DNA from: Patescibacteria group bacterium
GTDB lineage: Bacteria; Patescibacteriota; Patescibacteriia; UBA2591; JAQUPP01
Assembly (NCBI GenBank): GCA_028716665.1
Contig: JAQUPP010000001.1
Coordinates: 192,467-256,466, forward strand
DNA: 64,000 bases
Direction of reading: 5' to 3'
Shown: in pieces, positions 1-52,866 of the stretch
Position numbering within the stretch: the stretch's first letter is position 1
Layout: each line of letters begins with the position of its first letter
Translations under genes and position numbers: made by a program
The notes under the pieces: model-generated
Database searches by the model: none
Told to the model about the DNA's origin: nothing
The model's input: the letters and a program-made list of their open reading frames with translations, nothing else

Positions 1-2820
1 TCTTATATTGACAGCGAAAAAATTGGTAAAGATTTTAATAAAGAGATTGAAGAATTATTAAACTCTTTAAATAAAGAGGATGCTTTTCCTAAACAGACAG
101 AAGGCGTCTCTCTTGATCAAAAACAAAAAGAAAAACTTAGCCAATCTCTGGGAATGCCTATGGAAGGCATTGAACAGACTTTAGTTAATCAAAAAAATCA
201 AATAGAAAATTTAACTATTCAAAAATTCAAAGAACAGAAAGAAAAATTAAGCCAATCCTTGGGGCTGCCTATTGAAATTATTGAACAGGTTTTAGTCAAT
301 CAAAAAAGTAAAATAGAAAACTTAGCCATTCAAAAATTTCAAGCCGAAAAATCTCAAAAAACTCCTCGCTGGAAAAAAACTCTTAAAACAGTAGGGAAAA
401 TGGGTCTTTATATAGGCGGTGGTATCGGGCTTAGTATTTTAACAGGCGGAATAGCAGCCGGAGCAGCTGTTGGCGGAGCAAGAATTATTGAAACATTGAT
501 TAGTGGTAAGATAAAAAGAAAAGAAGATGAAGAAGCCCGAAAGAAAATGCAAGAATTTTTAATTTCTGATTCAGAAGAGGCAAAAACTCTTAAAGAAGAT
601 TTGCAAAAAAATATTTTAGCCGAACTCGCCGTGGCTAAACAACAGCAAGTTGAAGGAAAGGAAAAAGAGACCTCCCAGCTCGGCCAAGAGATTCAAAAAG
701 CTGAAGAAGCTTATACCGGGGGGAAAATTAAAAAGGAAGATCTGAAAACTCTTTACGGACACCAGAAAGACATTTATAAAGATTCAATGAGAAAGTATTT
801 TGAAGAAAGGGGCGAGGGCTTGTCTGGCGAAGAAATGGAAGAAAGAGTCCAGTTGGCCGCTTCTTTAATGGAAATGGATAATAACCAAAAAATTCTAGAA
901 ATGGAATTTAGCGCTAAAAATAAAGGATTTTTCACGAAAGCCCAAAATAAAATGGGAGAAATTTTAGCTCCTCTAGCCGGCGGAAAAACGGAAAAAGAAA
1001 AATTAGTTACGGCCGGTGTTTTTGCCTTTGCCGGTATCTTAGCTAGAACTTGTCCGGTGGTAAGAAATATAATGATGGGTTATGCCGGAATGAAAGTCGG
1101 AGAAGTAGCGGCCTCGGTAATTATAAGAAAGGCGAAAAGATTTGAAATTTTAAAAAGAATTTCTGCCGCTGAATTATTGCCTGAAGTAGATGAAAAAACG
1201 CTCAATTTAGCTAAAACTCAACTTTTAGACCAAGAATTTAAAAAAGAAGATCCTTCCGAATACGCCAAACTTAAAGAGAGAATTTTCGCTATTGAGAAAA
1301 CCAAAATTGAAGAGTCAACTGATTATATTAATAAGGCTAATGAAAAAATGGAAGAAACGGTTAAAGAAAAAATGTCCAAGGAAAAACAGGCTAAAATATT
1401 AAAATGGACGGGAAGAATAGGCGGTTTCGCAGCTGGATTTTTCGCCGGAGAAGCTTTATCAAACCTAAAAAATGAAGAAGCTCATGCAGAAACAAAACAT
1501 TTAGAAACCAAACCAGAAACAATAGTGATAAAACCCGAAGTTTCTCATACCCCAGAGATAAGTAATATAGAAACGGTTGCCAAAGGAGACAATATTTGGA
1601 AATTAGTGGAACGGCAGTTGGAGAAAAGAGGTTTACTTGAGAATTTAGATCAGTCTCAAAAAGATTATATGATTGATTCCTTAAAAGATAAAGTGGTGGC
1701 TAATCCGGAAGATTTTGGTCTTAAAAGCGCAGATCTTATCAATCCTGGTCAGACGATTGATTTTTCTGAAATTTTTAAAGACTCATCTGCTCTCAATACT
1801 CTTCACGAAGCAAGTAAAAATATTTCAGAAGAGGCCTCAAAACATATTGCTGAAAATAGCGAATTTATTAATAATATTTTACATACGCCGGTTGATAAAG
1901 TTTCAGATGAAGATTTACATAAAGCTATAAATATAATGGGCGGAGAAAGACAAGCCGGTTCAGGCATAACACATCCGGACATAACACATGAAGAATTAGT
2001 CAAAAAACTTAATGAAAATTTAAGAATTCGCGATTTTGATGAAGCTTTGCGTCATAAGTCACAATCTTCAGATAGTATAGTTCATACGGAGGCCGCACAG
2101 GGAGTTCATAATATTATTGAACCAACCCCAGTTTCTCATTCAGAAACAGTTACTAATGTTCCCTCGGATTCGACTCATGAAACTACTATAGTTGGAGCAA
2201 CAGAACATGTCAAAACTATCCCCGTAGAAAAAGCAACTCCAGTAGAGTCAGAAGCAGCGCACCATGCAGCCGCGCCAAAATCTCCAGAAATTAAAGATAC
2301 AGTTTCAACACAGGAAGTAGCAGAAGGGGCTAAAGTTGTTTCCTTAGAACAAGCTACCGCAGAGCATCCCTTGATTGTTGAAGGAGCAAAGATTTTTCAA
2401 AGAGATGGAAAATTAATTGTTAACCCAGATTTCGGGCCTGCAGCAATTTTTTCGGGAGATACTCTAAAACCTGATTTGCAATTTGATGGACCAACCGTGT
2501 TTGCTGTTTTAACCGGAGAAGAAAACAAATGGCTGGTTGAAAATCACATAGCTAATCTTGACAGCCTAGTTCAGGAAAAAGGACGAGATATAACACTAGA
2601 AAGAGAGGTATTGGGAACAACCTTTAATGTAGTACGAAATTTTGATAATATCTATGAAGCTTTAAAAGAAGCCAATTTAGGGAACACTTGGCAAGCAGAA
2701 ATTGTTCGGAGATACGTAAACGGACTTATTCAACCATGGATAGATAAGTACGGTGTTGATGGGGCTGAGAAAATTTTTCAAAAAGATATTTTAAAAGAAT
2801 ATAATTTAATTGAACAATAA
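1..2820 (+). CDS. Large repeat-containing, coiled-coil-rich protein with a central Gly/Ala-rich transmembrane segment. It is 5'-partial: frame 1 is open from base 1.
   Basis: The ORF track gives 154..2820, but the same frame has no stop back to position 1. The 37-aa N-terminal repeat unit LSQSLG(M/L)P..EQ(T/V)LVNQK..IENL.IQKF begins upstream of the first ATG. A hydrophobic GLYIGGGIGLSILTGGIAAGAAVGG segment and Glu/Lys-rich coiled-coil text follow. Confidence 0.6.
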   Translation, partial: SYIDSEKIGKDFNKEIEELLNSLNKEDAFPKQTEGVSLDQKQKEKLSQSLGMPMEGIEQTLVNQKNQIENLTIQKFKEQKEKLSQSLGLPIEIIEQVLVNQKSKIENLAIQKFQAEKSQKTPRWKKTLKTVGKMGLYIGGGIGLSILTGGIAAGAAVGGARIIETLISGKIKRKEDEEARKKMQEFLISDSEEAKTLKEDLQKNILAELAVAKQQQVEGKEKETSQLGQEIQKAEEAYTGGKIKKEDLKTLYGHQKDIYKDSMRKYFEERGEGLSGEEMEERVQLAASLMEMDNNQKILEMEFSAKNKGFFTKAQNKMGEILAPLAGGKTEKEKLVTAGVFAFAGILARTCPVVRNIMMGYAGMKVGEVAASVIIRKAKRFEILKRISAAELLPEVDEKTLNLAKTQLLDQEFKKEDPSEYAKLKERIFAIEKTKIEESTDYINKANEKMEETVKEKMSKEKQAKILKWTGRIGGFAAGFFAGEALSNLKNEEAHAETKHLETKPETIVIKPEVSHTPEISNIETVAKGDNIWKLVERQLEKRGLLENLDQSQKDYMIDSLKDKVVANPEDFGLKSADLINPGQTIDFSEIFKDSSALNTLHEASKNISEEASKHIAENSEFINNILHTPVDKVSDEDLHKAINIMGGERQAGSGITHPDITHEELVKKLNENLRIRDFDEALRHKSQSSDSIVHTEAAQGVHNIIEPTPVSHSETVTNVPSDSTHETTIVGATEHVKTIPVEKATPVESEAAHHAAAPKSPEIKDTVSTQEVAEGAKVVSLEQATAEHPLIVEGAKIFQRDGKLIVNPDFGPAAIFSGDTLKPDLQFDGPTVFAVLTGEENKWLVENHIANLDSLVQEKGRDITLEREVLGTTFNVVRNFDNIYEALKEANLGNTWQAEIVRRYVNGLIQPWIDKYGVDGAEKIFQKDILKEYNLIEQ

Positions 2821-3205: not shown

Positions 3206-3332
3206 TCTGTTTGAGAAAATAAAAATTATTCAGGAAGAAAATTTGAACCAAGCGATAAAAGTGGTTTTGGGATAGACAAAAAATTTGACAGAACCCCTAT
3301 AACTCTATTGGTAGGTGAAACCTACCACTTAA

Positions 3333-3362
3333 CTAGAAAATGGCCATTGACAATTGGGCCAT
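3333..3362 (+). promoter_or_regulatory. Sigma70-like promoter (TTGACA-N17-TAATAT) embedded in the palindrome aatggccaTTGACAattgggccatt
   Basis: A -35 TTGACA sits inside an 8-bp-arm palindrome, with TAATAT 17 nt downstream. The element lies upstream of the 3382 ORF. Confidence 0.4.
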
Positions 3363-3381
3363 TTTATGATAATATAAATAT

Positions 3382-4990: not shown

Positions 4991-7636
4991 TTACTCCAAA
5001 TGAGCTGTTTGAGCAAACTGGCTTATTTTATTTTGCAGCAAAGGATAAGTTTTTAAACTGTTATCTTTGTTGAAAACTTTATCAGCCGCTTCTTGAGCTT
5101 CTTTTAAAATAACAACATCGGAAAGTCGGGCAATTTTCAAGTCAGTGAAAAATCCGGCTTGGCTGGTGCCAAAAACTTCTCCCGGTCCGCGCATTTCCAA
5201 ATCCATTTCCGCTAATTCAAAGCCATTTTGAGCGGTAATTAGAGCTTTTAATCTTTGTTTTGCTTTTTCGCCTTCATTTTCCAAAAATAGAAAACAGTGA
5301 GATTGATGTTCGGCTCGGCCGATTCTGCCGCGCAATTGATAAAGCTGGGCCAGTCCGAATCTTTCTGCTCCTTCAACAATCATCACCGAAGCGTTTGGTA
5401 TGTCAATTCCGACTTCAATTACGGTCGTGGAAATTAAAATATTGATTTTATTTTGGTCGAATTTTTTCATTATCTCTTCTTTCTCTTTGGCTTTCATTCG
5501 GCCGTGGAGAAATCCCAAAGTTAAGTCAGGGAATATTTTTTCCGATAATTTTTTATATTCTTCTTTGACTGATTTTACGCCCAGTTGATCAGATTGGTCG
5601 ATTAAAGGGCAAATAACGAAGATTTGACGGCCATTTTTTATTTCTTCGCGGATAAATTTATAAATCTTTTCCGTTTCATCAGGTTTGACAATGCTGGTTA
5701 AAACTTTTTTTCTGCCCGGCGGCATTTCGTCAATAATGGATAAATCCAAATCGCCGTAAAGAGTCAAAGCGACTGAGCGGGGAATCGGGGTGGCGGTCAT
5801 TGATAAAAAATGCGGCATTAACGCGGACTTACACTGACTGGACGCTGACTTACGCGGACTTTCCATGTGATTTTTTTTATTGTCTGTGTCGGTCAGTGCT
5901 TCGTCTGTGTCAGTCTGTTTCATGTAGCCATGAATCGTTCTTTTTATTTGAATATCATCTTTCCCAAAATTGACTAATAACGCCAAATGATAATCGCTGC
6001 TTTTCAAATAATGCCAAATTTGTTCCGTTTCAAATTTACCGATAGAAGGCAAAGCTTTTATTTCCACAATTATTTTATCATCAACGATAAAATCCGGTCT
6101 GTAAGTGCCTATTTTTTCATTATCGTATTGGATATTTATAATTTTTTCTTTTTCAAATTTTATATTATTTTTTTTAAATTCTTTCTCAATTGCTTTTTGA
6201 TAGATATTTTCTTTATGGCCCAAACCAAGTTCTTTTTTAATTTTAAACATTATTCCCCTGATTTGATAAGTTAAATTTTCGTATAACAGATTATTATTTT
6301 TTTTGTCCGTATCAGTCCGTGTTATATCTGCGTTAGTCTGTGTAGATGTGTCTGTGTCTGTCCGTGTTTCGTCCGTGTTAGTCTGTGTCATGTCGGGATT
6401 GGACTTTGCCAGAAACGCGGCTCTTTGCGCTACGCCGAAACGGTGCTGTTCGTCAATAATCGTCATGGCCAAATTCTTGAATTTTACTTTTTCTTGAATT
6501 AAAGAATGAGTGCCGATAATCAATTTTATTTTTCCGGAAGATATTTCTTCATAAATTTTCACTTTTTTATTTTTTTCGTCCTTATTCGTTTTGATATTTT
6601 CACGAGTCAAAAGCCCGATTTTGAACGGGTAATCTTTCAGCAATTCGGTGATATTTTTAAAATGCTGCTCGGCCAAAATTTCAGTCGGAGCCATATAAGC
6701 CACTTGATAACCGTTTAAAAGAACGTTTAAAATGGCTAAAACGCCGACAATGGTTTTTCCGCTGCCTACGTCGCCTTCAAGAAGCCGGTTCATCGGCGCG
6801 CTTGTTTCCAAATTATTGATGATTTCCCAACTGGATTTTCTCTGGGCATCGGTTAGTTTGAAAGGCAAGTTGTCAACAAATTTTTTCGTTTCTTCCAATT
6901 TGAATTCAATTTTCGGCGCGACCAAACTTTTGATTTTTTGGCGGACCAATTGATTGCGGGTTTGAATTAAAAATAATTCGTCAAATTTCAAGCGGTGAGC
7001 GGCTCGTTCCAGCCATTCCCTGTTTTGCGGAAAATGAATTTGCTCCAAGGCAAAAGTAGTACTTGTTAAATTATATTTACTCCTTATTTCTCTGGGCAGC
7101 CAATCTTCAATATCTTGCGTCAAAGGAATGGTCTGGCGGATAAGATAGCGGATTTGTTTTTGGCTCAAATTGACCGTGGCGGGATAAATCGGCACTAATC
7201 GGCCGGTGTGGATCGGATCTTTGCTGTTTACGATTTCGTAGGACGGATTCAGAAATTGCATTCCGTAATAATCGTCAACATCTATTTTTCCGGCCAAATA
7301 AATTTCCAGTCCGGATCGTAAAATTTTTGTTAAAAAAGGCTGGTTGAACCAGACCACTTTAATAGAATCAGTTTTGTCGGAAATAATCGCCTCGGTAATA
7401 ACCATTTTTTTTCGCGGTGAACGGTGATTGGCGATTAAGCTGATTTTTCCTTTAATTGTGCCGGATTTTTTTGTTTTCAATTCGGCAATGGTTAAAATTT
7501 TGCTGTAATCGTCATAGCGAAAAGGAAAATGATACAGCAAATCCTCGGCCGTTTGAATTTTTAATTTTTCCAAACGGTTTAAGGTTGTTTTGCTCGCCGA
7601 AGTCAATTCACTTAATGGTGTTTTGAGACAAGGCAT
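4991..7636 (-). CDS. recG: ATP-dependent DNA helicase RecG carrying an in-frame ~190-aa insertion that contains a GxxExxY / PD-(D/E)XK domain
   Basis: N-terminal wedge-like region. Walker A LEGDVGSGKT, DEQH box IIDEQHRFG and motif III SMTATPIPRS are present. The C-terminal helicase motifs QLRGRIGR are also present. Confidence 0.9.
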   Translation of the reverse strand: MPCLKTPLSELTSASKTTLNRLEKLKIQTAEDLLYHFPFRYDDYSKILTIAELKTKKSGTIKGKISLIANHRSPRKKMVITEAIISDKTDSIKVVWFNQPFLTKILRSGLEIYLAGKIDVDDYYGMQFLNPSYEIVNSKDPIHTGRLVPIYPATVNLSQKQIRYLIRQTIPLTQDIEDWLPREIRSKYNLTSTTFALEQIHFPQNREWLERAAHRLKFDELFLIQTRNQLVRQKIKSLVAPKIEFKLEETKKFVDNLPFKLTDAQRKSSWEIINNLETSAPMNRLLEGDVGSGKTIVGVLAILNVLLNGYQVAYMAPTEILAEQHFKNITELLKDYPFKIGLLTRENIKTNKDEKNKKVKIYEEISSGKIKLIIGTHSLIQEKVKFKNLAMTIIDEQHRFGVAQRAAFLAKSNPDMTQTNTDETRTDTDTSTQTNADITRTDTDKKNNNLLYENLTYQIRGIMFKIKKELGLGHKENIYQKAIEKEFKKNNIKFEKEKIINIQYDNEKIGTYRPDFIVDDKIIVEIKALPSIGKFETEQIWHYLKSSDYHLALLVNFGKDDIQIKRTIHGYMKQTDTDEALTDTDNKKNHMESPRKSASSQCKSALMPHFLSMTATPIPRSVALTLYGDLDLSIIDEMPPGRKKVLTSIVKPDETEKIYKFIREEIKNGRQIFVICPLIDQSDQLGVKSVKEEYKKLSEKIFPDLTLGFLHGRMKAKEKEEIMKKFDQNKINILISTTVIEVGIDIPNASVMIVEGAERFGLAQLYQLRGRIGRAEHQSHCFLFLENEGEKAKQRLKALITAQNGFELAEMDLEMRGPGEVFGTSQAGFFTDLKIARLSDVVILKEAQEAADKVFNKDNSLKTYPLLQNKISQFAQTAHLE

Positions 7637-7843
7637 AATTTCAAAATTATTATAATATTATAATACAAATTTGACTTTTTGGCAAGCCCTCACACCAAAC
7701 TTAACACCTGATTGGCATATTATCAAAATTAGAAGGCGAAGCCGCTTCGCTTTTATTTTTATCTATTAAGAAAGCTTTATGTTGAGTTTTGGTGTGGGGG
7801 CAATAGGGTCAAACCCTTGATATTTATTAACCGAAATTAGAGG

Positions 7844-7871
7844 TTGACATTTAAAATTTTTTTGATAAAAT
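7844..7871 (+). promoter_or_regulatory. Sigma70-like promoter TTGACA-N16-TAAAAT
   Basis: ggTTGACAtttaaaatttttttgaTAAAAT. A second TTGACA-N17-TAAATT lies at 7947..7975, directly before the ATG at 7982, which suggests a possible leaderless mRNA. Confidence 0.4.
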
Positions 7872-7981
7872 AAAATAGTATTAAATCTGTTATCCTGTTC
7901 AAACCGGATGGTTGCGACGGACAATATGGTGGCGGTTTGTGAACCATTGACATTTCAGAAATTCTTTGATAAATTAGATTT

Positions 7982-8590
7982 ATGAAATTTTACGATCAAA
8001 AAGTTGTTCAAGAAGCAAGAAAAGAAAGAAAAAAGGGCTTATCAATCAGAGAAATAGAGAAAAAACTTAAAGTTCCCAATTTTACCATTTCTCGCTGGGT
8101 TAGAGACATTCCCTCTGACGCCAAAGCATTTAATTTAGCCAGACAGAAGGAAGAATTTTTGAAATCTGATTTGCGTAATTTATGCGACAATTTGAAAATC
8201 GATAAAAATCTTGCCAAAATTTTTGTCAGTTTATTATATTGGTGCGAGGGATCAAAATATCCATCCAGTAATTTTGTCGCTTTTTCCAATAGTGATTATA
8301 ACTTGGTTAAAGTATTTCTAGGGCTTTTAAGACGCGGTTTTGAAATTAATGAAGATAAAATCAGAATTCATTTGCAGCTTCATTCAACTCATTCTCCTAA
8401 AGAAATTACGGAATTTTGGAGTGATTTATTGGATGTGCCGACAACTCAATTTTATAAACCGACAATCACAAATCCGACAAATAGAATGAAAAGAATTGAT
8501 TATAGAGGGACATGTACAATTAAATATTTTGATGTTAAACTGTTATTAAAAATTATTGGTCTTTACGAAAGCTTAACTAAAAAGTTATAA
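7982..8590 (+). CDS. Hypothetical protein with an N-terminal HTH. It may be a single-motif LAGLIDADG-type endonuclease.
   Basis: HTH-like segment GLSIREIEKKLKVPNFTISRWV. The motif FVSLLYWCEGSK resembles a LAGLIDADG block. The gene ends 15 nt before tRNA-Ser. Confidence 0.45.
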   Translation: MKFYDQKVVQEARKERKKGLSIREIEKKLKVPNFTISRWVRDIPSDAKAFNLARQKEEFLKSDLRNLCDNLKIDKNLAKIFVSLLYWCEGSKYPSSNFVAFSNSDYNLVKVFLGLLRRGFEINEDKIRIHLQLHSTHSPKEITEFWSDLLDVPTTQFYKPTITNPTNRMKRIDYRGTCTIKYFDVKLLLKIIGLYESLTKKL

Positions 8591-8605
8591 AATAATTTGA
8601 TTTAT

Positions 8606-8696
8606 GGAAGGATGGCCGAGTGGTTTAAGGCGGAGGTTTGCTAAACCTCTGTACGGGTTTTAATCCGTACCGTGGGTTCAAATCCCACTCCTTCCG
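8606..8696 (+). tRNA. tRNA-Ser (anticodon GCT), class II with a long variable arm
   Basis: Manual fold: acceptor GGAAGGA/TCCTTCC, anticodon stem GAGGT/ACCTC, loop TTGCTAA, long variable arm, T-loop TTCAAAT. Confidence 0.85.
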
Positions 8697-8828
8697 TTTT
8701 TAAACGGAAGTGTAGTTATTTGAAATACCCTGTTTAAAAATAGGGTATTCTGGTTTTGTTTTAAATAGATATGGAGAGGTGGCTTCGGCCCGAGGCCGAC
8801 CAGCCTTGGGCTGGGAGCGATATTTTTT

Positions 8829-9086
8829 ATGTATTACGTTTATATTCTAAAAAGTAAAAAGAATAGTAAGCTATATAAAGGATTTACTAACGATTTAAAA
8901 AGAAGAATTAAAGAGCATAACTCCGGTAAATCTGTTTTTACTAAAAATAATGGACCATGGAGTTTAATTTATTACGAGTGTTTTCTCTCAAAAATTGACG
9001 CGGAAAAAGAAGAATTATTTTTAAAGTCAGGGAAAGGTAAAGAGAGAATAAAGTTCTTACTAAAAGATACATTGGAAAAAATATAA
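8829..9086 (+). CDS. GIY-YIG domain endonuclease (85 aa)
   Basis: The N-terminus MYYVYILKS...LYKGFTNDLKRRIKEHN matches the GIY-YIG signature (Y-x-YIL...Y-G-T..L..R...H). Confidence 0.75.
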   Translation: MYYVYILKSKKNSKLYKGFTNDLKRRIKEHNSGKSVFTKNNGPWSLIYYECFLSKIDAEKEELFLKSGKGKERIKFLLKDTLEKI

Positions 9087-9095
9087 AATAAACAT

Positions 9096-9182
9096 GGAGA
9101 GGTGGCTGAGCGGTCGAAAGCGACAGTCTTGAAAACTGTTAGGGCAGTAATGTCCTCGTGGGTTCGAATCCCACCCTCTCCG
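9096..9182 (+). tRNA. tRNA-Ser (anticodon TGA), class II
   Basis: Manual fold: acceptor GGAGAGG/CCTCTCC, anticodon stem ACAGT/ACTGT, loop CTTGAAA, long variable arm, T-loop TTCGAAT. Confidence 0.85.
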
Positions 9183-9273
9183 TACTTCGACAAGCTCAGT
9201 ACTTTTACTTCGAGCCACAGCAGTGGCGAGAAGCGAATTCACCCTCTCCATCAATTTTTGGTATAATTTTTAT

Positions 9274-9723
9274 ATGAAAGAAAAAATCACTCTTCACGCC
9301 AAGTGGCTCATCAAAGCTCCTCTGACAGAGGTGTTTAACATAATAACTGACTTTGAAAAATGGCCTGAGTATTTTCCGAAAGTTGCGGAATCTATACAAG
9401 TCGTAAAGCATGGAGAAAATAATTTGGAAATAAATGCGACTGTCAAATCGTTCGGCCAAAAGTTCCCGGTAAAAATGAAAACTCGGATTCTCCCCGGAAA
9501 GGGATTTATTTCGGATAATGAGAGTCCTAAATTTGGAACTTCCGGTCACGAAGAATTATTGCTCTCTGAATGCCCGGAAGGAACCGTGATTGATTACACT
9601 TATCAAGTTGTTATCCATAAACGCTGGCTCCGTATAGTTGCAGGGCCGTTGATTAGTTGGTTTTCCATGAAATACTGGCAGAAAGCTGTTATAGATGAAT
9701 TAAGAAAAAGGGTTGAGAGATAA
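9274..9723 (+). CDS. SRPBCC (polyketide cyclase/START-like) domain protein
   Basis: The ORF track starts at 9223, inside the tRNA flank, so the likely start is MKEKITL at 9274. The pattern is SRPBCC-like (..VFNIITDFEKWPEYFP..). Confidence 0.5.
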   Translation: MKEKITLHAKWLIKAPLTEVFNIITDFEKWPEYFPKVAESIQVVKHGENNLEINATVKSFGQKFPVKMKTRILPGKGFISDNESPKFGTSGHEELLLSECPEGTVIDYTYQVVIHKRWLRIVAGPLISWFSMKYWQKAVIDELRKRVER

Positions 9724-9912
9724 AATTCTTTTTAATTCTTCTACTATCTTTTTTTCTCACGGCTCTAAACGTGTCCAGTAGTGCGAGAAGCGAATTTCCC
9801 CTTGTTTGTCTAAGAGTAGAGTGATCGGCGACAAACAGCAATCCCATTGTAGAGACTATTCTTTCTGCCGGAAAAAGTTTTGTGGATAGACTGAAGTATT
9901 TTATTTTAAACT

Positions 9913-10800
9913 ATGAAAATTACTAAAAGTATACAAAAGATAAAAGGTAATTCTGTAGATTTTCTAGGACAACTTGAGAAAATTATAGAATGTATTTTGG
10001 TTATTGTAAAAATTAAATTTCAAGATGCTCAAATTTCCTTATTTAGATTGACATTATCTCTACCCTACAAGGATATAAGTTACGAAACTTATAATGAGTT
10101 TAAAAATAATTGGAGAGATATTGATTTTTCTTTACTTGATTATTTTGTTTGTTCTATACATATACAAGAAGGCCCCAAATTATACAAAAACATATTTGAT
10201 TTTGGTTCCACCTTTTTTAAGCATAATCAGTTTGTTGAATTATCTATTGGAGCGGATGAACAAGATTTCTTAGAAAAATTATTTTATAAGGTTACACAAT
10301 CTTTACCCGAATTTAAAATCCTTGAATATGTTCCTGAAAGTGATCAAATTAAAGAAAGAAAAAATATTATTTTAAAAACAATTTTAATATTAAAAAAATT
10401 TAATCGGTATCAATTACGATTAAAAAATTTATTAAAAAATGAAAAAGAACTGCAAAATTTTCTATTTCCAATACTGAAAAGTCATTTTTTAAATCTTGAA
10501 GAAGAACTCAATTTACCAAAATTTGGCACCATTTCATACAAACCAGATTTTGGAATTCCAGATGCTAAATTATTATTAGAATGTAAATATTTAAGAAAAA
10601 AGCAAGATATTAAAAAAATTCAGAAAGAAATTAATGACGATGCTGCTGGTTATTTAGTGACTTCTACTGATTATAAATCACTTATTATTTTTATATATAA
10701 TGAAAAAAATACTCCGATACCTGATAAATTTTCAAAAGATTTAAAAAAAATTTCTGGTATTATTGATGTGATAATAGTTCCAGGCGTGGATCCAAAATAA
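9913..10800 (+). CDS. Hypothetical protein with a C-terminal PD-(D/E)XK nuclease-like motif
   Basis: The ORF is very AT-rich. The C-terminus carries KPDFGIPDAKLLLECKY, a PD-x(n)-E-x-K pattern. Confidence 0.5.
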   Translation: MKITKSIQKIKGNSVDFLGQLEKIIECILVIVKIKFQDAQISLFRLTLSLPYKDISYETYNEFKNNWRDIDFSLLDYFVCSIHIQEGPKLYKNIFDFGSTFFKHNQFVELSIGADEQDFLEKLFYKVTQSLPEFKILEYVPESDQIKERKNIILKTILILKKFNRYQLRLKNLLKNEKELQNFLFPILKSHFLNLEEELNLPKFGTISYKPDFGIPDAKLLLECKYLRKKQDIKKIQKEINDDAAGYLVTSTDYKSLIIFIYNEKNTPIPDKFSKDLKKISGIIDVIIVPGVDPK

Positions 10801-18590: not shown

Positions 18591-18676
18591 AATTTTTTTG
18601 CCCCTGTAGCTCAACTCCGACGCCTTGAAGGGTCGGAGTCCCGACCGAAGCGTCGGGGCGGATAGAAAAATTTATT

Positions 18677-18940
18677 ATGAAAGGTTACGTTTATATTTTA
18701 AAAGATAAAATAAATAAATTTTATATTGGCAGTACGTCGGATATTAAGAGAAGATTACAACAACATAGCGCTGGACATACTCAAACTACGAGAAATATGA
18801 TTCATCCGATATTGGTTTTATCTCAAGAATACGAAACTTTAAGTATCGCCAGAAAAATAGAGAAAAAAATAAAAAATTTAAAAAGAAAGGACTATATTAT
18901 AAAAATGGTAGCCGATGGCTGTATAAAAATGAAAGCCTAG
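18677..18940 (+). CDS. GIY-YIG domain endonuclease (87 aa)
   Basis: MKGYVYILKDKINKFYIGSTSDIKRRLQQH matches the GIY-YIG signature. Confidence 0.75.
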   Translation: MKGYVYILKDKINKFYIGSTSDIKRRLQQHSAGHTQTTRNMIHPILVLSQEYETLSIARKIEKKIKNLKRKDYIIKMVADGCIKMKA

Positions 18941-19040
18941 AATTTGCCCCTGTAGCTCAATACCGACGCCTTGAGGGGTCGGTATCTCGACCTCCAATAA
19001 AAATGGAGCGTCGGGACGGATAGAAAAATTTTGTTCTTTT

Positions 19041-19112
19041 GCCCCTGTAGCTCAACGGATAGAGTGTGGGTTTGCGGAACCCAAGATCCGCGTCCGATTC
19101 GCGGCGGGGGCA
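19041..19112 (+). tRNA. tRNA, most likely Arg (anticodon GCG by manual fold)
   Basis: Acceptor GCCCCTG/CGGGGGC, D-stem GCTC/GAGT, anticodon stem TGGGT/ACCCA, loop TTGCGGA, T-stem CCGCG/CGCGG. The isotype needs tRNAscan confirmation. Confidence 0.7.
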
Positions 19113-52548: not shown

Positions 52549-52866
52549 ATTAAATCTTTAACAAAAATGTTTATATAGATATATAATATCATATATAAAA
52601 ATTTTGTCGCCTCTGGACATTTGTTATTTTTATGTTATCATGAAAATAACAATTTAATTTGCCTAAACTCATGGATTTTCTGTGGGCATGGCAATAAAAC
52701 CTGTGATGGATATTGAGCTCGTCGTTAGAGCACCATCACAGGTCTATATCCGAAAGGGTGTAGGGTGACGCAAGTCATCGCTAGCGGCGGGCTTTATGTA
52801 TTCCCGCCAAAAAATTTAAAAAAATAAAAGTTGAGTTAACATAATTAATAATTAATTTTTATTTAT

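Follow-up and report, generated by a model that had tools for sequence, protein, structure and literature searches.

The 64,000-nt stretch of DNA analysed here (hereafter the window; contig JAQUPP010000001.1 of a Patescibacteria group bacterium) carries, immediately upstream of its tRNA-Ser(TGA) gene, a 323-nt insert comprising two 15-nt hairpins, the pentamer GAGCG, an 85-aa open reading frame (ORF) of the GIY-YIG family and a spacer resembling the native flank of the tRNA gene. Our data suggest that this insert (8785..9107) is probably a selfish, free-standing cassette of the homing endonuclease type, 323 bp long and lodged in the 5' end of the tRNA-Ser(TGA) gene, a reading that we hold with moderate confidence and that, like every statement on mechanism below, is drawn from sequence. 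Such a cassette would begin with a double hairpin whose stems covary, go on through a short leader to the gene for a nuclease made up of the catalytic domain only, and end in a 3' replacement copy of the target (approximately 9 nt of leader plus tRNA positions 1-12). Because the cassette carries this replacement piece, a complete and expressible tRNA gene would remain downstream after insertion at 12|13, and the original 5' piece, dead and split by the hairpins, would end up upstream.

The tRNA genes of the window were called by ARAGORN and Rfam, and its ORFs were scored against Pfam (Table 1). Within the window the 13-mer ATGGAGAGGTGGC has two copies and no more, 8771..8783 and 9094..9106; a first-pass annotation of this DNA had reported the duplication with its second copy correctly placed and its first at 8761..8773, a slip of 10 nt. 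Exact identity extends one further base (T) to 14 nt, and with two mismatches allowed the repeat grows to 22 nt (AAATAGATATGGAGAGGTGGCT, 8763..8784; AAATAAACATGGAGAGGTGGCT, 9086..9107; 20 of 22 positions identical), made up of 9 nt of 5' flank, a T at position -1 and tRNA positions 1-12, with a spacing of 323 nt between the copies. The ORF stops 9 nt ahead of position 1 of the tRNA. Because GAGCG continues the tRNA sequence past the hairpins, the upstream copy is best described as flank plus tRNA 1-17, split at the boundary of D-stem and D-loop (12|13). Both hairpins, the 85-aa ORF and the intact tRNA gene beginning within the second repeat copy had been proposed before and were all recovered here, whereas the split 1-17 copy, the flank within the duplication and a 10-nt copy of the acceptor strand downstream of the tRNA go beyond the first-pass annotation. 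The 13-mer might be coincidental and the ORF an ordinary neighbour of a tRNA gene; taken window-wide the 13-mer alone is not overwhelming, since shuffled sequences searched anywhere in the window with two mismatches gave at least two matches in 10 of 100 shuffles. Chance expectation for an exact 14-mer recurring within 330 nt is, however, about 1 in 10^6 tries, the match extends to 20/22 and lies at an insertion boundary seen in an empty allele, and the pattern recurs at a second locus of the window (18600..19112) and at no fewer than 35 other loci across dozens of genomes, so that coincidence is refuted.

Scanning a metagenome collection with a query in which the native flank was joined to tRNA 1-18 retrieved the uninterrupted junction from one contig (L081). 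This contig reads tRNA-Ser(GCT), the same two terminator-like hairpins as in the window, ...TTTTAAATAGACC|TGGAGAGGTGGCT|GAGCGGTCG... and an intact tRNA-Ser(TGA) identical to that of the window; the flank is shared, and hairpins and ORF are absent. Exactly 323 nt are missing (8785..9107, equivalently 8772..9094), with no other change. L081 and the window are approximately 90% identical in AlaRS and the downstream translational GTPase gene and 97.5% identical around tRNA-Ser(GCT). A further relative, approximately 91% identical to the window genome overall, has the site filled (L001/L018; assembly JBAZMD01). Close relatives are therefore polymorphic for the insertion or deletion of this 323-nt segment, which a direct repeat flanks, and an empty site of the kind that the first-pass annotation had advised looking for does exist in a related genome. 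Presence in the window and L001 and absence from L081 at an identical position is the pattern of a free-standing homing endonuclease gene, the comparison at tRNA-Ser(TGA) involving a single empty allele.

The duplication had originally been read as a target-site duplication. The insert is indeed flanked by a repeat of its target, but this need not be a classical duplication arising from a staggered cut, and the second copy is better read as a carried replacement piece. No terminal inverted repeats were found at the 323-nt insert and the length of the duplication varies between loci, unlike in a classical transposon or insertion sequence. Nor does the insert belong with group I introns, the tRNA-Ser(TGA) gene being contiguous and complete with no ribozyme core found; an Rfam scan of the window at gathering thresholds, a permissive scan of 7600..9400 and scans of 28 related loci returned no group I or group II introns. 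It differs likewise from the integrase-type islands of tRNA genes in that the GIY-YIG gene is the only ORF in the 323 nt.

The L081 allele is also the exact product that excision between the repeats would leave, as expected if a minicircle, or a copy of one, with flank, tRNA 1-12, hairpins and tRNA 13-17 as its attachment site, had entered in the manner of Campbell by a single crossover in the 22-nt segment left of the hairpins, the reverse reaction excising it precisely. The predicted circle junction would run from the end of the ORF through AATAAACA, TGGAGAGGTGGCT and TCGGCCCGAGG, and would read ...AAAATAAACATGGAGAGGTGGCTTCGGCCCGAGG.... By this route the parts come out in precisely the order seen, the target nucleotides behind the hairpins included, and the mirror-type elements described below resemble miniature islands at tRNA 3' ends with a direct repeat (L081). 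We nevertheless regard it as quite improbable, given that no integrase or recombinase is encoded, that GIY-YIG enzymes are not known to rejoin strands, that 13-22 nt is short for a RecA-dependent crossover and that a double-stranded circle of 323 bp would be strained.

The 85-aa protein is a member of the GIY-YIG family (PF01541; 58.7 bits against a cut-off of 22.6, E=7e-16), as is an 87-aa paralogue encoded at the second locus of the window (50.4 bits). The catalytic domain covers the protein wholly, and Pfam gave no other domain in it but a marginal, overlapping T5orf172 match at its cut-off. Its nearest solved structures by sequence are BH0048 (PDB 1zg2, E=1.1e-9, residues 2-72) and EF2693 (1ywl, E=2.9e-5), both UPF0213, with weak matches only to SLX1 structures. 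The single domain, the size range of approximately 80-110 aa and the similarity to BH0048 and EF2693 place the protein among the UPF0213 or stand-alone Slx1-like proteins, the latter representing in prokaryotes the minimal form of the GIY-YIG domain (Dunin-Horkawicz et al., 2006; PMC1564403). The motifs YVYIL, LYKG, KRR, EHN and YYE are kept in at least 80-90% of 90 aligned homologues, and the catalytic residues predicted from the alignment (the two tyrosines of the GIY and YIG motifs, the arginine and the metal-binding glutamate) are all in place. All 69 residues available from L001 are identical to those of the window despite approximately 14 nucleotide differences, which are synonymous only, so the nuclease is under purifying selection. 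A first search by itself gave more than 1,200 homologues, 70-85% identical, in many lineages of the Candidate Phyla Radiation (CPR). The protein does not qualify as a defence gene by PADLOC, where matches were at the level of motifs (E ~1e-3 to 1e-5 over ~35 residues), and a phage-protein library likewise gave motif-level matches only.

The arrangement is not confined to tRNA-Ser(TGA). Further GIY-YIG ORFs preceded by tRNA 5' fragments, which the first-pass annotation had suggested searching for, were found first of all within the window, where the 87-aa paralogue (37% identical to the 85-aa protein) precedes tRNA-Arg(GCG). The first 15 nt of this tRNA occur there in three copies (starts at 18600, 18946 and 19041), two of them in hairpin modules, one with and one without an ORF, and the first hairpins of the two modules differ by compensatory changes. 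For the comparison with other genomes a set of 90 homologous ORFs was assembled from 82 sequences (80 loci of other genomes, L081 and the window). A tRNA gene on the same strand and no more than 140 nt away accompanies 65 of the 90, and where the tRNA lies downstream it starts within 20 nt of the stop codon or overlaps it in 46 of 53 cases. In 35/55 the ORF has on its 5' side an exact prefix of at least 9 nt of the adjacent tRNA, after which come one or two GC-rich hairpins and some further bases of the tRNA; many other loci have a diverged upstream tRNA copy in place of the exact prefix. Break points were seen behind position 8 and at 12|13 as well as within the D-loop, the anticodon loop (35|36) and the T-loop, and their clustering in relatives at the 5' edge of the D-loop bears out the earlier suggestion that the D-arm region is the target area. 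Depending on the locus, the duplicated tRNA segment measures 8-71 nt and is accompanied by 0 to at least 13 nt of flank. The bases that follow the hairpin are specific to the adjoining tRNA in L048 and L059. A duplication bounded at tRNA position +1, which would have hinted at an RNA intermediate, was considered and rejected, since flank is included in the window and in L012, L048 and L059 (11-13 nt in the latter three). Relatives also show a mirror form in which an intact tRNA is followed by the ORF, a hairpin and a 3' fragment of the tRNA. Most of the 65 ORFs have one or other of the two layouts, a hairpin-interrupted partial copy of the tRNA ahead of the ORF or a 3' fragment behind it.

Across these loci nuclease clade, hairpin family, orientation and tRNA class co-vary. 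The clade of the window has the 15+15-nt double hairpin and sits by tRNA-Ser, tRNA-Tyr and tRNA-Cys; another has CCTGCCTGCCGGCAGGCAGG (L048, L051 and L059) and sits by tRNA-Asn or tRNA-Arg in one genome each of Shapirobacteria, Polaribacter and Thiohalospira. In a further clade two homologues (L043, 3001..3720; L070, 3001..3420) end directly before the gene for RNase P RNA (in L043 Rfam RF00010, 131 bits), a 12-nt piece of which (CCCCGCACCTTT) is also found upstream of the ORF in L043, and cassettes of this type may thus target other genes for structured RNAs too. Stacked modules with differing hairpin sequences occur at one tRNA in L011, L015 and the tRNA-Arg locus of the window. L015 carries an insert of approximately 60 nt, non-coding and with two hairpins, at 18|19 in the D-loop (2540..2790 and 3250..3365); it stands once ahead of tRNA-Ser(TGA) and, as a tandem pair, ahead of tRNA-Ser(GCT), is accompanied in every case by a duplicate of the native 5' flank, and is absent from the close relatives L009 and L010. 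At tRNA-Ser(TGA) this flank duplicate comes directly behind the insert, and the intact tRNA begins after it. Since the sequence left of the insert there is the end of a GIY-YIG ORF, the tRNA alone can have supplied the homology on the left.

Alignment of 25 distinct double-hairpin elements shows that 99.7% of stem cells are paired and that 7 of the 12 pairs change on both sides (50 cells), G:U pairs occupying 1/300 stem cells; pairing collapsed in controls with a slid register. As the stems covary this strongly, the conserved feature is intrastrand pairing and not sequence. Folded as DNA, the double hairpin of the window reaches -13.6 kcal/mol (z = -3.2), and the element reads alike on both strands. 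Scarce wobble pairs and strand symmetry are more in keeping with a hairpin or cruciform of DNA than with a helix of RNA, which is an argument and not a proof. Rfam families matching the hairpin modules were found neither in the window, nor in the permissive scan of 7600..9400, nor in 28 related loci. A palindromic repeat spread genome-wide was ruled out as their source, the 64 kb holding only 14 GC-rich hairpins in total, among which the tandem pair is unique. The identical 30-nt element shared by L004, L006 and L014 was rejected as a sign of recent transfer, the nucleases there being 65-77% identical and the element having few free positions. In L044 a 5'-truncated ORF lies alongside a decayed hairpin.

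The hairpins could themselves be the target, in which case the module of hairpins and tRNA sequence would be a small, older and independent palindromic element akin to the double-hairpin elements of mitochondria, and the GIY-YIG gene would home into ORF-less modules, cutting a few nucleotides 3' and never cutting the tRNA. Modules with and without an ORF do share sequence up to the leader of the ORF (18946..19024 against 18600..18666; also L011), the final hairpin always ends approximately 13-25 nt ahead of the start codon, each nuclease clade has a hairpin family of its own regardless of host and tRNA, a structure that is the same on both strands would suit a dimer or a cruciform, and the problem of self-cleavage would be removed. 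We consider this unlikely all the same. The sole empty allele found (L081) lacks hairpins and ORF alike, so that at tRNA-Ser(TGA) the two were gained or lost together; the arrival of modules in tRNA loops and the accompanying duplication are left unexplained; and covarying stems imply selection for pairing and not a fixed sequence for a protein to read.

A resident, domesticated nuclease, co-transcribed with the tRNA, not currently mobile and using the fragment and hairpins as a stabilising, translational-control, guide or decoy element of its RNA, is in our view distinctly unlikely. [quoted passage not shown] Yet presence and absence differ among close relatives, several paralogues share a genome, each by a different tRNA and in varying orientation, and stacked and decayed copies exist. 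Moreover, the fragments often mismatch the tRNA that they adjoin (L001/L018, L017, L021), where a guide or decoy should stay matched, and the low frequency of G:U would be unusual for RNA helices that covary so much.

Returning to the homing-type cassette that we favour, on a chromosome that lacks the cassette the nuclease would break or nick the tRNA gene or the DNA alongside, probably recognising a DNA structure (a cloverleaf loop or the hairpins) and not a long sequence. Targeting by structure is plausible because the protein has no DNA-binding domain, is kin to Slx1 and is associated with insertion points at cloverleaf loops. The break would be repaired by copying a cassette-bearing chromosome, with the tRNA sequence alone as homology, and the hairpins may label the displaced copy where the break occurred and put that copy out of use. 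Since the full target would be regenerated, the site could be hit again, which would explain the stacked modules at several loci. The idea that replacement sequence travels as cargo is best supported by L015, because there a copy of flank plus tRNA 1-18 arrived beside an unrelated left neighbour, the outcome expected of repair guided by tRNA homology alone.

Several points weigh against this interpretation. The empty L081 allele could equally reflect precise loss by recombination between the repeats. Cassette proteins are only 60-85% identical between genomes, and pairs within a genome are 60% (L012) or 37% (window) identical; such divergence is accounted for by long residence no less well than by frequent transfer, and on account of the cross-genome values the history of the cassettes is possibly largely vertical. 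Viral contigs contained no relatives of the nuclease, so that a phage vector is without support, and 25 of the 90 homologues, five of them at contig ends, have no tRNA nearby. Homing endonuclease genes as a rule destroy their target on insertion and so make the carrier immune, whereas here the uninterrupted empty-site sequence is kept from position -9 to the 3' end of the tRNA, no immunity being evident, and cleavage of the host's own essential tRNA gene would be costly. A separate DNA-binding domain of the I-TevI, I-BmoI or Seg type is lacking, all 85 aa being catalytic, which makes recognition of a long site as by I-TevI or SegB unlikely, and DNA cleavage by the protein is itself putative. 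Finally, the hairpins are embedded in the displaced copy, whose last 5-17 nt of target sequence follow them, a position that a single simple insertion does not explain. It would be explained if the hairpins served to disable the leftover site, if they were recognised by the nuclease, or if they formed part of an attachment site (tRNA 1-12, hairpins, 13-17) crossing over at the left.

Table 1. Features of the tRNA-Ser(TGA) and tRNA-Arg(GCG) loci in the window.
Feature	Position	Strand	Remarks
tRNA-Ser(GCT)	8606..8696	+	upstream context, common to L081; ARAGORN/Rfam
Two terminator-like hairpins after tRNA-Ser(GCT)	8691..8710, 8724..8749	+	also in L081
Left copy of 22-nt direct repeat: flank AAATAGATA, T at -1, tRNA-Ser(TGA) 1-12 (GGAGAGGTGGCT)	8763..8784	+	
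Double-hairpin element, two 15-nt hairpins (6-bp stem, 3-nt loop)	8785..8814	+	at 12|13 of partial tRNA copy
Hairpin 1, TCGGCC-CGA-GGCCGA	8785..8799	+	
Hairpin 2, CCAGCC-TTG-GGCTGG	8800..8814	+	
GAGCG, copy of tRNA positions 13-17	8815..8819	+	partial tRNA copy resumes, then stops
85-aa stand-alone GIY-YIG ORF, UPF0213/Slx1-like minimal domain	8829..9086	+	Pfam and PDB matches
Right copy of 22-nt repeat: flank-like spacer AAATAAACA, T at -1, tRNA 1-12	9086..9107	+	5' end of functional tRNA
Intact tRNA-Ser(TGA)	9096..9182	+	Rfam 63.3 bits, ARAGORN
Remnant of mirror-type 3' element	9183..9250	+	9183..9214 shared with L081; tRNA-derived 10-mer at 9240..9249
Module 1: tRNA-Arg(GCG) 1-15, hairpins 18615..18638 and 18639..18658, then CGGATAGA = tRNA 16-23	18600..18666	+	
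Paralogous 87-aa GIY-YIG ORF, 37% identical to 85-aa protein	18677..18940	+	Pfam
Module 2 without ORF: tRNA-Arg 1-15, two hairpins plus extra inner hairpin, then CGGATAGA	18946..19024	+	
Intact tRNA-Arg(GCG)	19041..19112	+	ARAGORN/Rfam

On the 3' side, the tRNA-Ser(TGA) of L081 is followed by 32 nt identical to window 9183..9214, then by a 97-aa GIY-YIG ORF (Pfam E=8.5e-15), a tRNA 3' fragment (CCCACCCTCTCCG) and an HNH homing endonuclease. An ORF of the 97-aa type is missing from the window, where the 32 nt, a 25-nt piece matching another L081 module and CACCCTCTCC, a copy of the 3' acceptor strand of the tRNA (9172..9181), remain. The tRNA-Ser(TGA) gene of the window therefore has a complete cassette on its 5' side and what is left of a mirror-type element on its 3' side. 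The hexamer GCGAAT (9225..9230), at one stage taken for a remnant of a T-loop, was withdrawn as such, L081 assigning it to a different conserved module, so that CACCCTCTCC is the only tRNA-derived piece.

From this point to the conserved membrane-protein and AlaRS genes the DNA is wholly different in the three relatives (window 9183..10800, L081 275..1700, L018 274..2470): an SRPBCC gene and a DpnII/MboI-like restriction endonuclease lie there in the window, the GIY-YIG and HNH genes in L081, and something else in L018, so that the region downstream of tRNA-Ser(TGA) looks like a hot spot next to a tRNA. Two copies of AGTG(G)CGAGAAGCGAATT (9221..9238 and 9779..9796) bracket the SRPBCC gene (9274..9723), and their counterpart in L081 is one continuous module of approximately 130 nt (733..865) with a T-loop-like start (GGATTCGAAC) and a tRNA 3' end with CCA. 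Because the L081 module is continuous, the SRPBCC gene looks like another insertion flanked by repeats of its target. Downstream of many tRNAs (L008, L014, L015, L034 and L041; in L081 at 733..865) there is a partial 3' tRNA copy (T-arm plus acceptor strand) with its T-loop interrupted by a conserved, structured insert of approximately 95-130 nt, its consensus over five of the loci being GATTCGAAC-GCCGGAGCGAT...GCGAGGCGGTGGCCAGAC...TAGTCGCGGCC. Rfam has no family that matches this insert, which may be a non-coding relative of the cassettes or an unknown RNA.

Elsewhere, tandem mini-tRNA units lie downstream of tRNA-Cys and tRNA-Tyr genes (L058 3420..3560, L047 and L080). Each unit consists of the 5' strand and loop of the anticodon stem, a CCCCGC-NNNN-GCGGGG hairpin in place of approximately 17 nt, and the sequence from the T-loop to the 3' end; in L058 two units are complete and a third is begun. 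The L001 and L018 contigs both end inside the GIY-YIG gene. In their tRNA-Ser(TGA) the acceptor stem (GGAGGCG/CGCCTCC), the variable arm and the T-stem are different, the upstream fragment still reading GGAGAGG, and homology to the window reaches no further than the ORF's last codons in one direction and the end of the tRNA in the other, which suggests that the tRNA and the region downstream were replaced through recombination.

Outside these loci, the RecG helicase of the window (4991..7636, minus strand) contains a complete PD-(D/E)XK_3 domain (PF13366, E=4e-33) inserted in frame between its DEAD and Helicase_C domains (approximately residues 414-608, nt ~5810..6400), with Thr/Asp-rich repeats on either side (TDTDTS..., TDTDEALTDTD). 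RecG of L007 and L012 aligns on both sides without the inserted stretch, and similar domains occur separately in L025 and L037; this stretch could be a selfish in-frame insertion. A 202-aa ORF (7982..8590, plus strand) ends 15 nt before tRNA-Ser(GCT), is 93% conserved in L001 and has a 28% identical relative in L066; a LAGLIDADG enzyme was considered but not confirmed, the ORF giving only a weak N-terminal helix-turn-helix match. A full-length match to LOOT RNA (Rfam RF03000, 89.8 bits) lies at 52660..52779 on the plus strand.

Taken beyond the single locus, we tentatively put forward, as a possibility that we rate below even, that these cassettes form a previously unrecognised class of minimal mobile element of approximately 0.3 kb, in which two hairpins and a catalytic-only GIY-YIG protein of 80-90 aa would target, by structure and not by long sequence, the single-stranded loops and junctions of the cloverleaf that tRNA genes encode, and apparently RNase P RNA genes as well, bring a replacement piece and allow re-invasion, from which stacks of partial tRNA copies with hairpins would result. 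In the open-access full-text literature we met with no account of small GIY-YIG genes that nest within tRNA duplications interrupted by hairpins, a report elsewhere being possible, and no report was found in the literature tying UPF0213/Slx1-like proteins to tRNA genes, partial tRNA copies or hairpins. If the interpretation is true, it shows a route by which a nuclease gene can enter an intron-less, essential RNA gene, by bringing a spare copy of the displaced part and with no need of splicing. It would also provide the tiny GIY-YIG proteins, a widespread family whose function is unknown, with a concrete role in CPR bacteria at any rate, and hence a function for the CPR members of UPF0213 and possibly for others. 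tRNA pseudo-fragments, GC-rich hairpins and assembly breaks by tRNA genes in streamlined genomes would be explained, and tRNA loci would be marked as recombination hot spots. How GIY-YIG enzymes locate their sites could usefully be studied on a nuclease that is all catalytic domain and whose natural target is defined, and such a protein might also serve as a basis for small engineered nucleases.

Among known systems, the IS200/IS605 TnpA and REP/RAYT elements share with the cassette imperfect-palindrome hairpins that are integral to a tiny mobile unit and whose intrastrand pairing is conserved. Unlike the GIY-YIG cassette, they depend on HUH tyrosine transposases, leave their target unduplicated and are not directed at tRNA genes. 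Integrase-borne islands and prophages at tRNA genes restore the gene on integration and duplicate its 3' end. Like the cassette, they carry a piece of the tRNA for this restoration and leave a partial tRNA direct repeat at the far end, but the cassette has no integrase, is ~0.3 kb and not 10-100 kb long, duplicates the 5' end plus leader and not the 3' end, and has hairpins interrupting the displaced copy. In the mitochondria of Allomyces, a mobile endonuclease ORF inserted in atp6 is reported to have brought with it a replacement copy of the displaced gene end. We know of no described link between nuclease clade and hairpin family in Allomyces, nor of hairpins placed in cloverleaf loops there. 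The cassette is likened to this case by description and not by sequence, the setting being an organelle and a protein gene as against a bacterium and a tRNA gene. Going by the part of PMC3787672 that cites Paquin et al. (2000), Allomyces mitochondria also hold double-hairpin elements with evidence of mobility, which resemble those described here in being small, GC-rich two-hairpin elements in an AT-rich genome.

By sequence and architecture the closest proteins are BH0048 and EF2693 of UPF0213, single-domain and of 80-100 aa. In their setting, the closest are the Seg proteins of T-even phages, of which SegB in the tRNA cluster of T4 is one, likewise encoded by GIY-YIG genes that lie outside introns and among or next to tRNA genes (PMC2330249; PMC2988022). 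The likeness extends to presence/absence polymorphism between relatives and to a presumed break-induced gene conversion that carries flanking markers along. Seg proteins have two domains, of which one binds DNA, and measure roughly 200 aa or more. To our knowledge, their genes lie between other genes and have no target duplication. The cassette differs in encoding 85 aa of catalytic domain only, in lying within tRNA sequence, in bringing a replacement 5' piece, in the hairpins at its junction and in regenerating the whole target. As read from its sequence, it would work like a free-standing homing endonuclease gene but departs from one in two features, destruction of the target and possession of a DNA-binding domain, and there is a fair chance that it represents a distinct class of minimal element.

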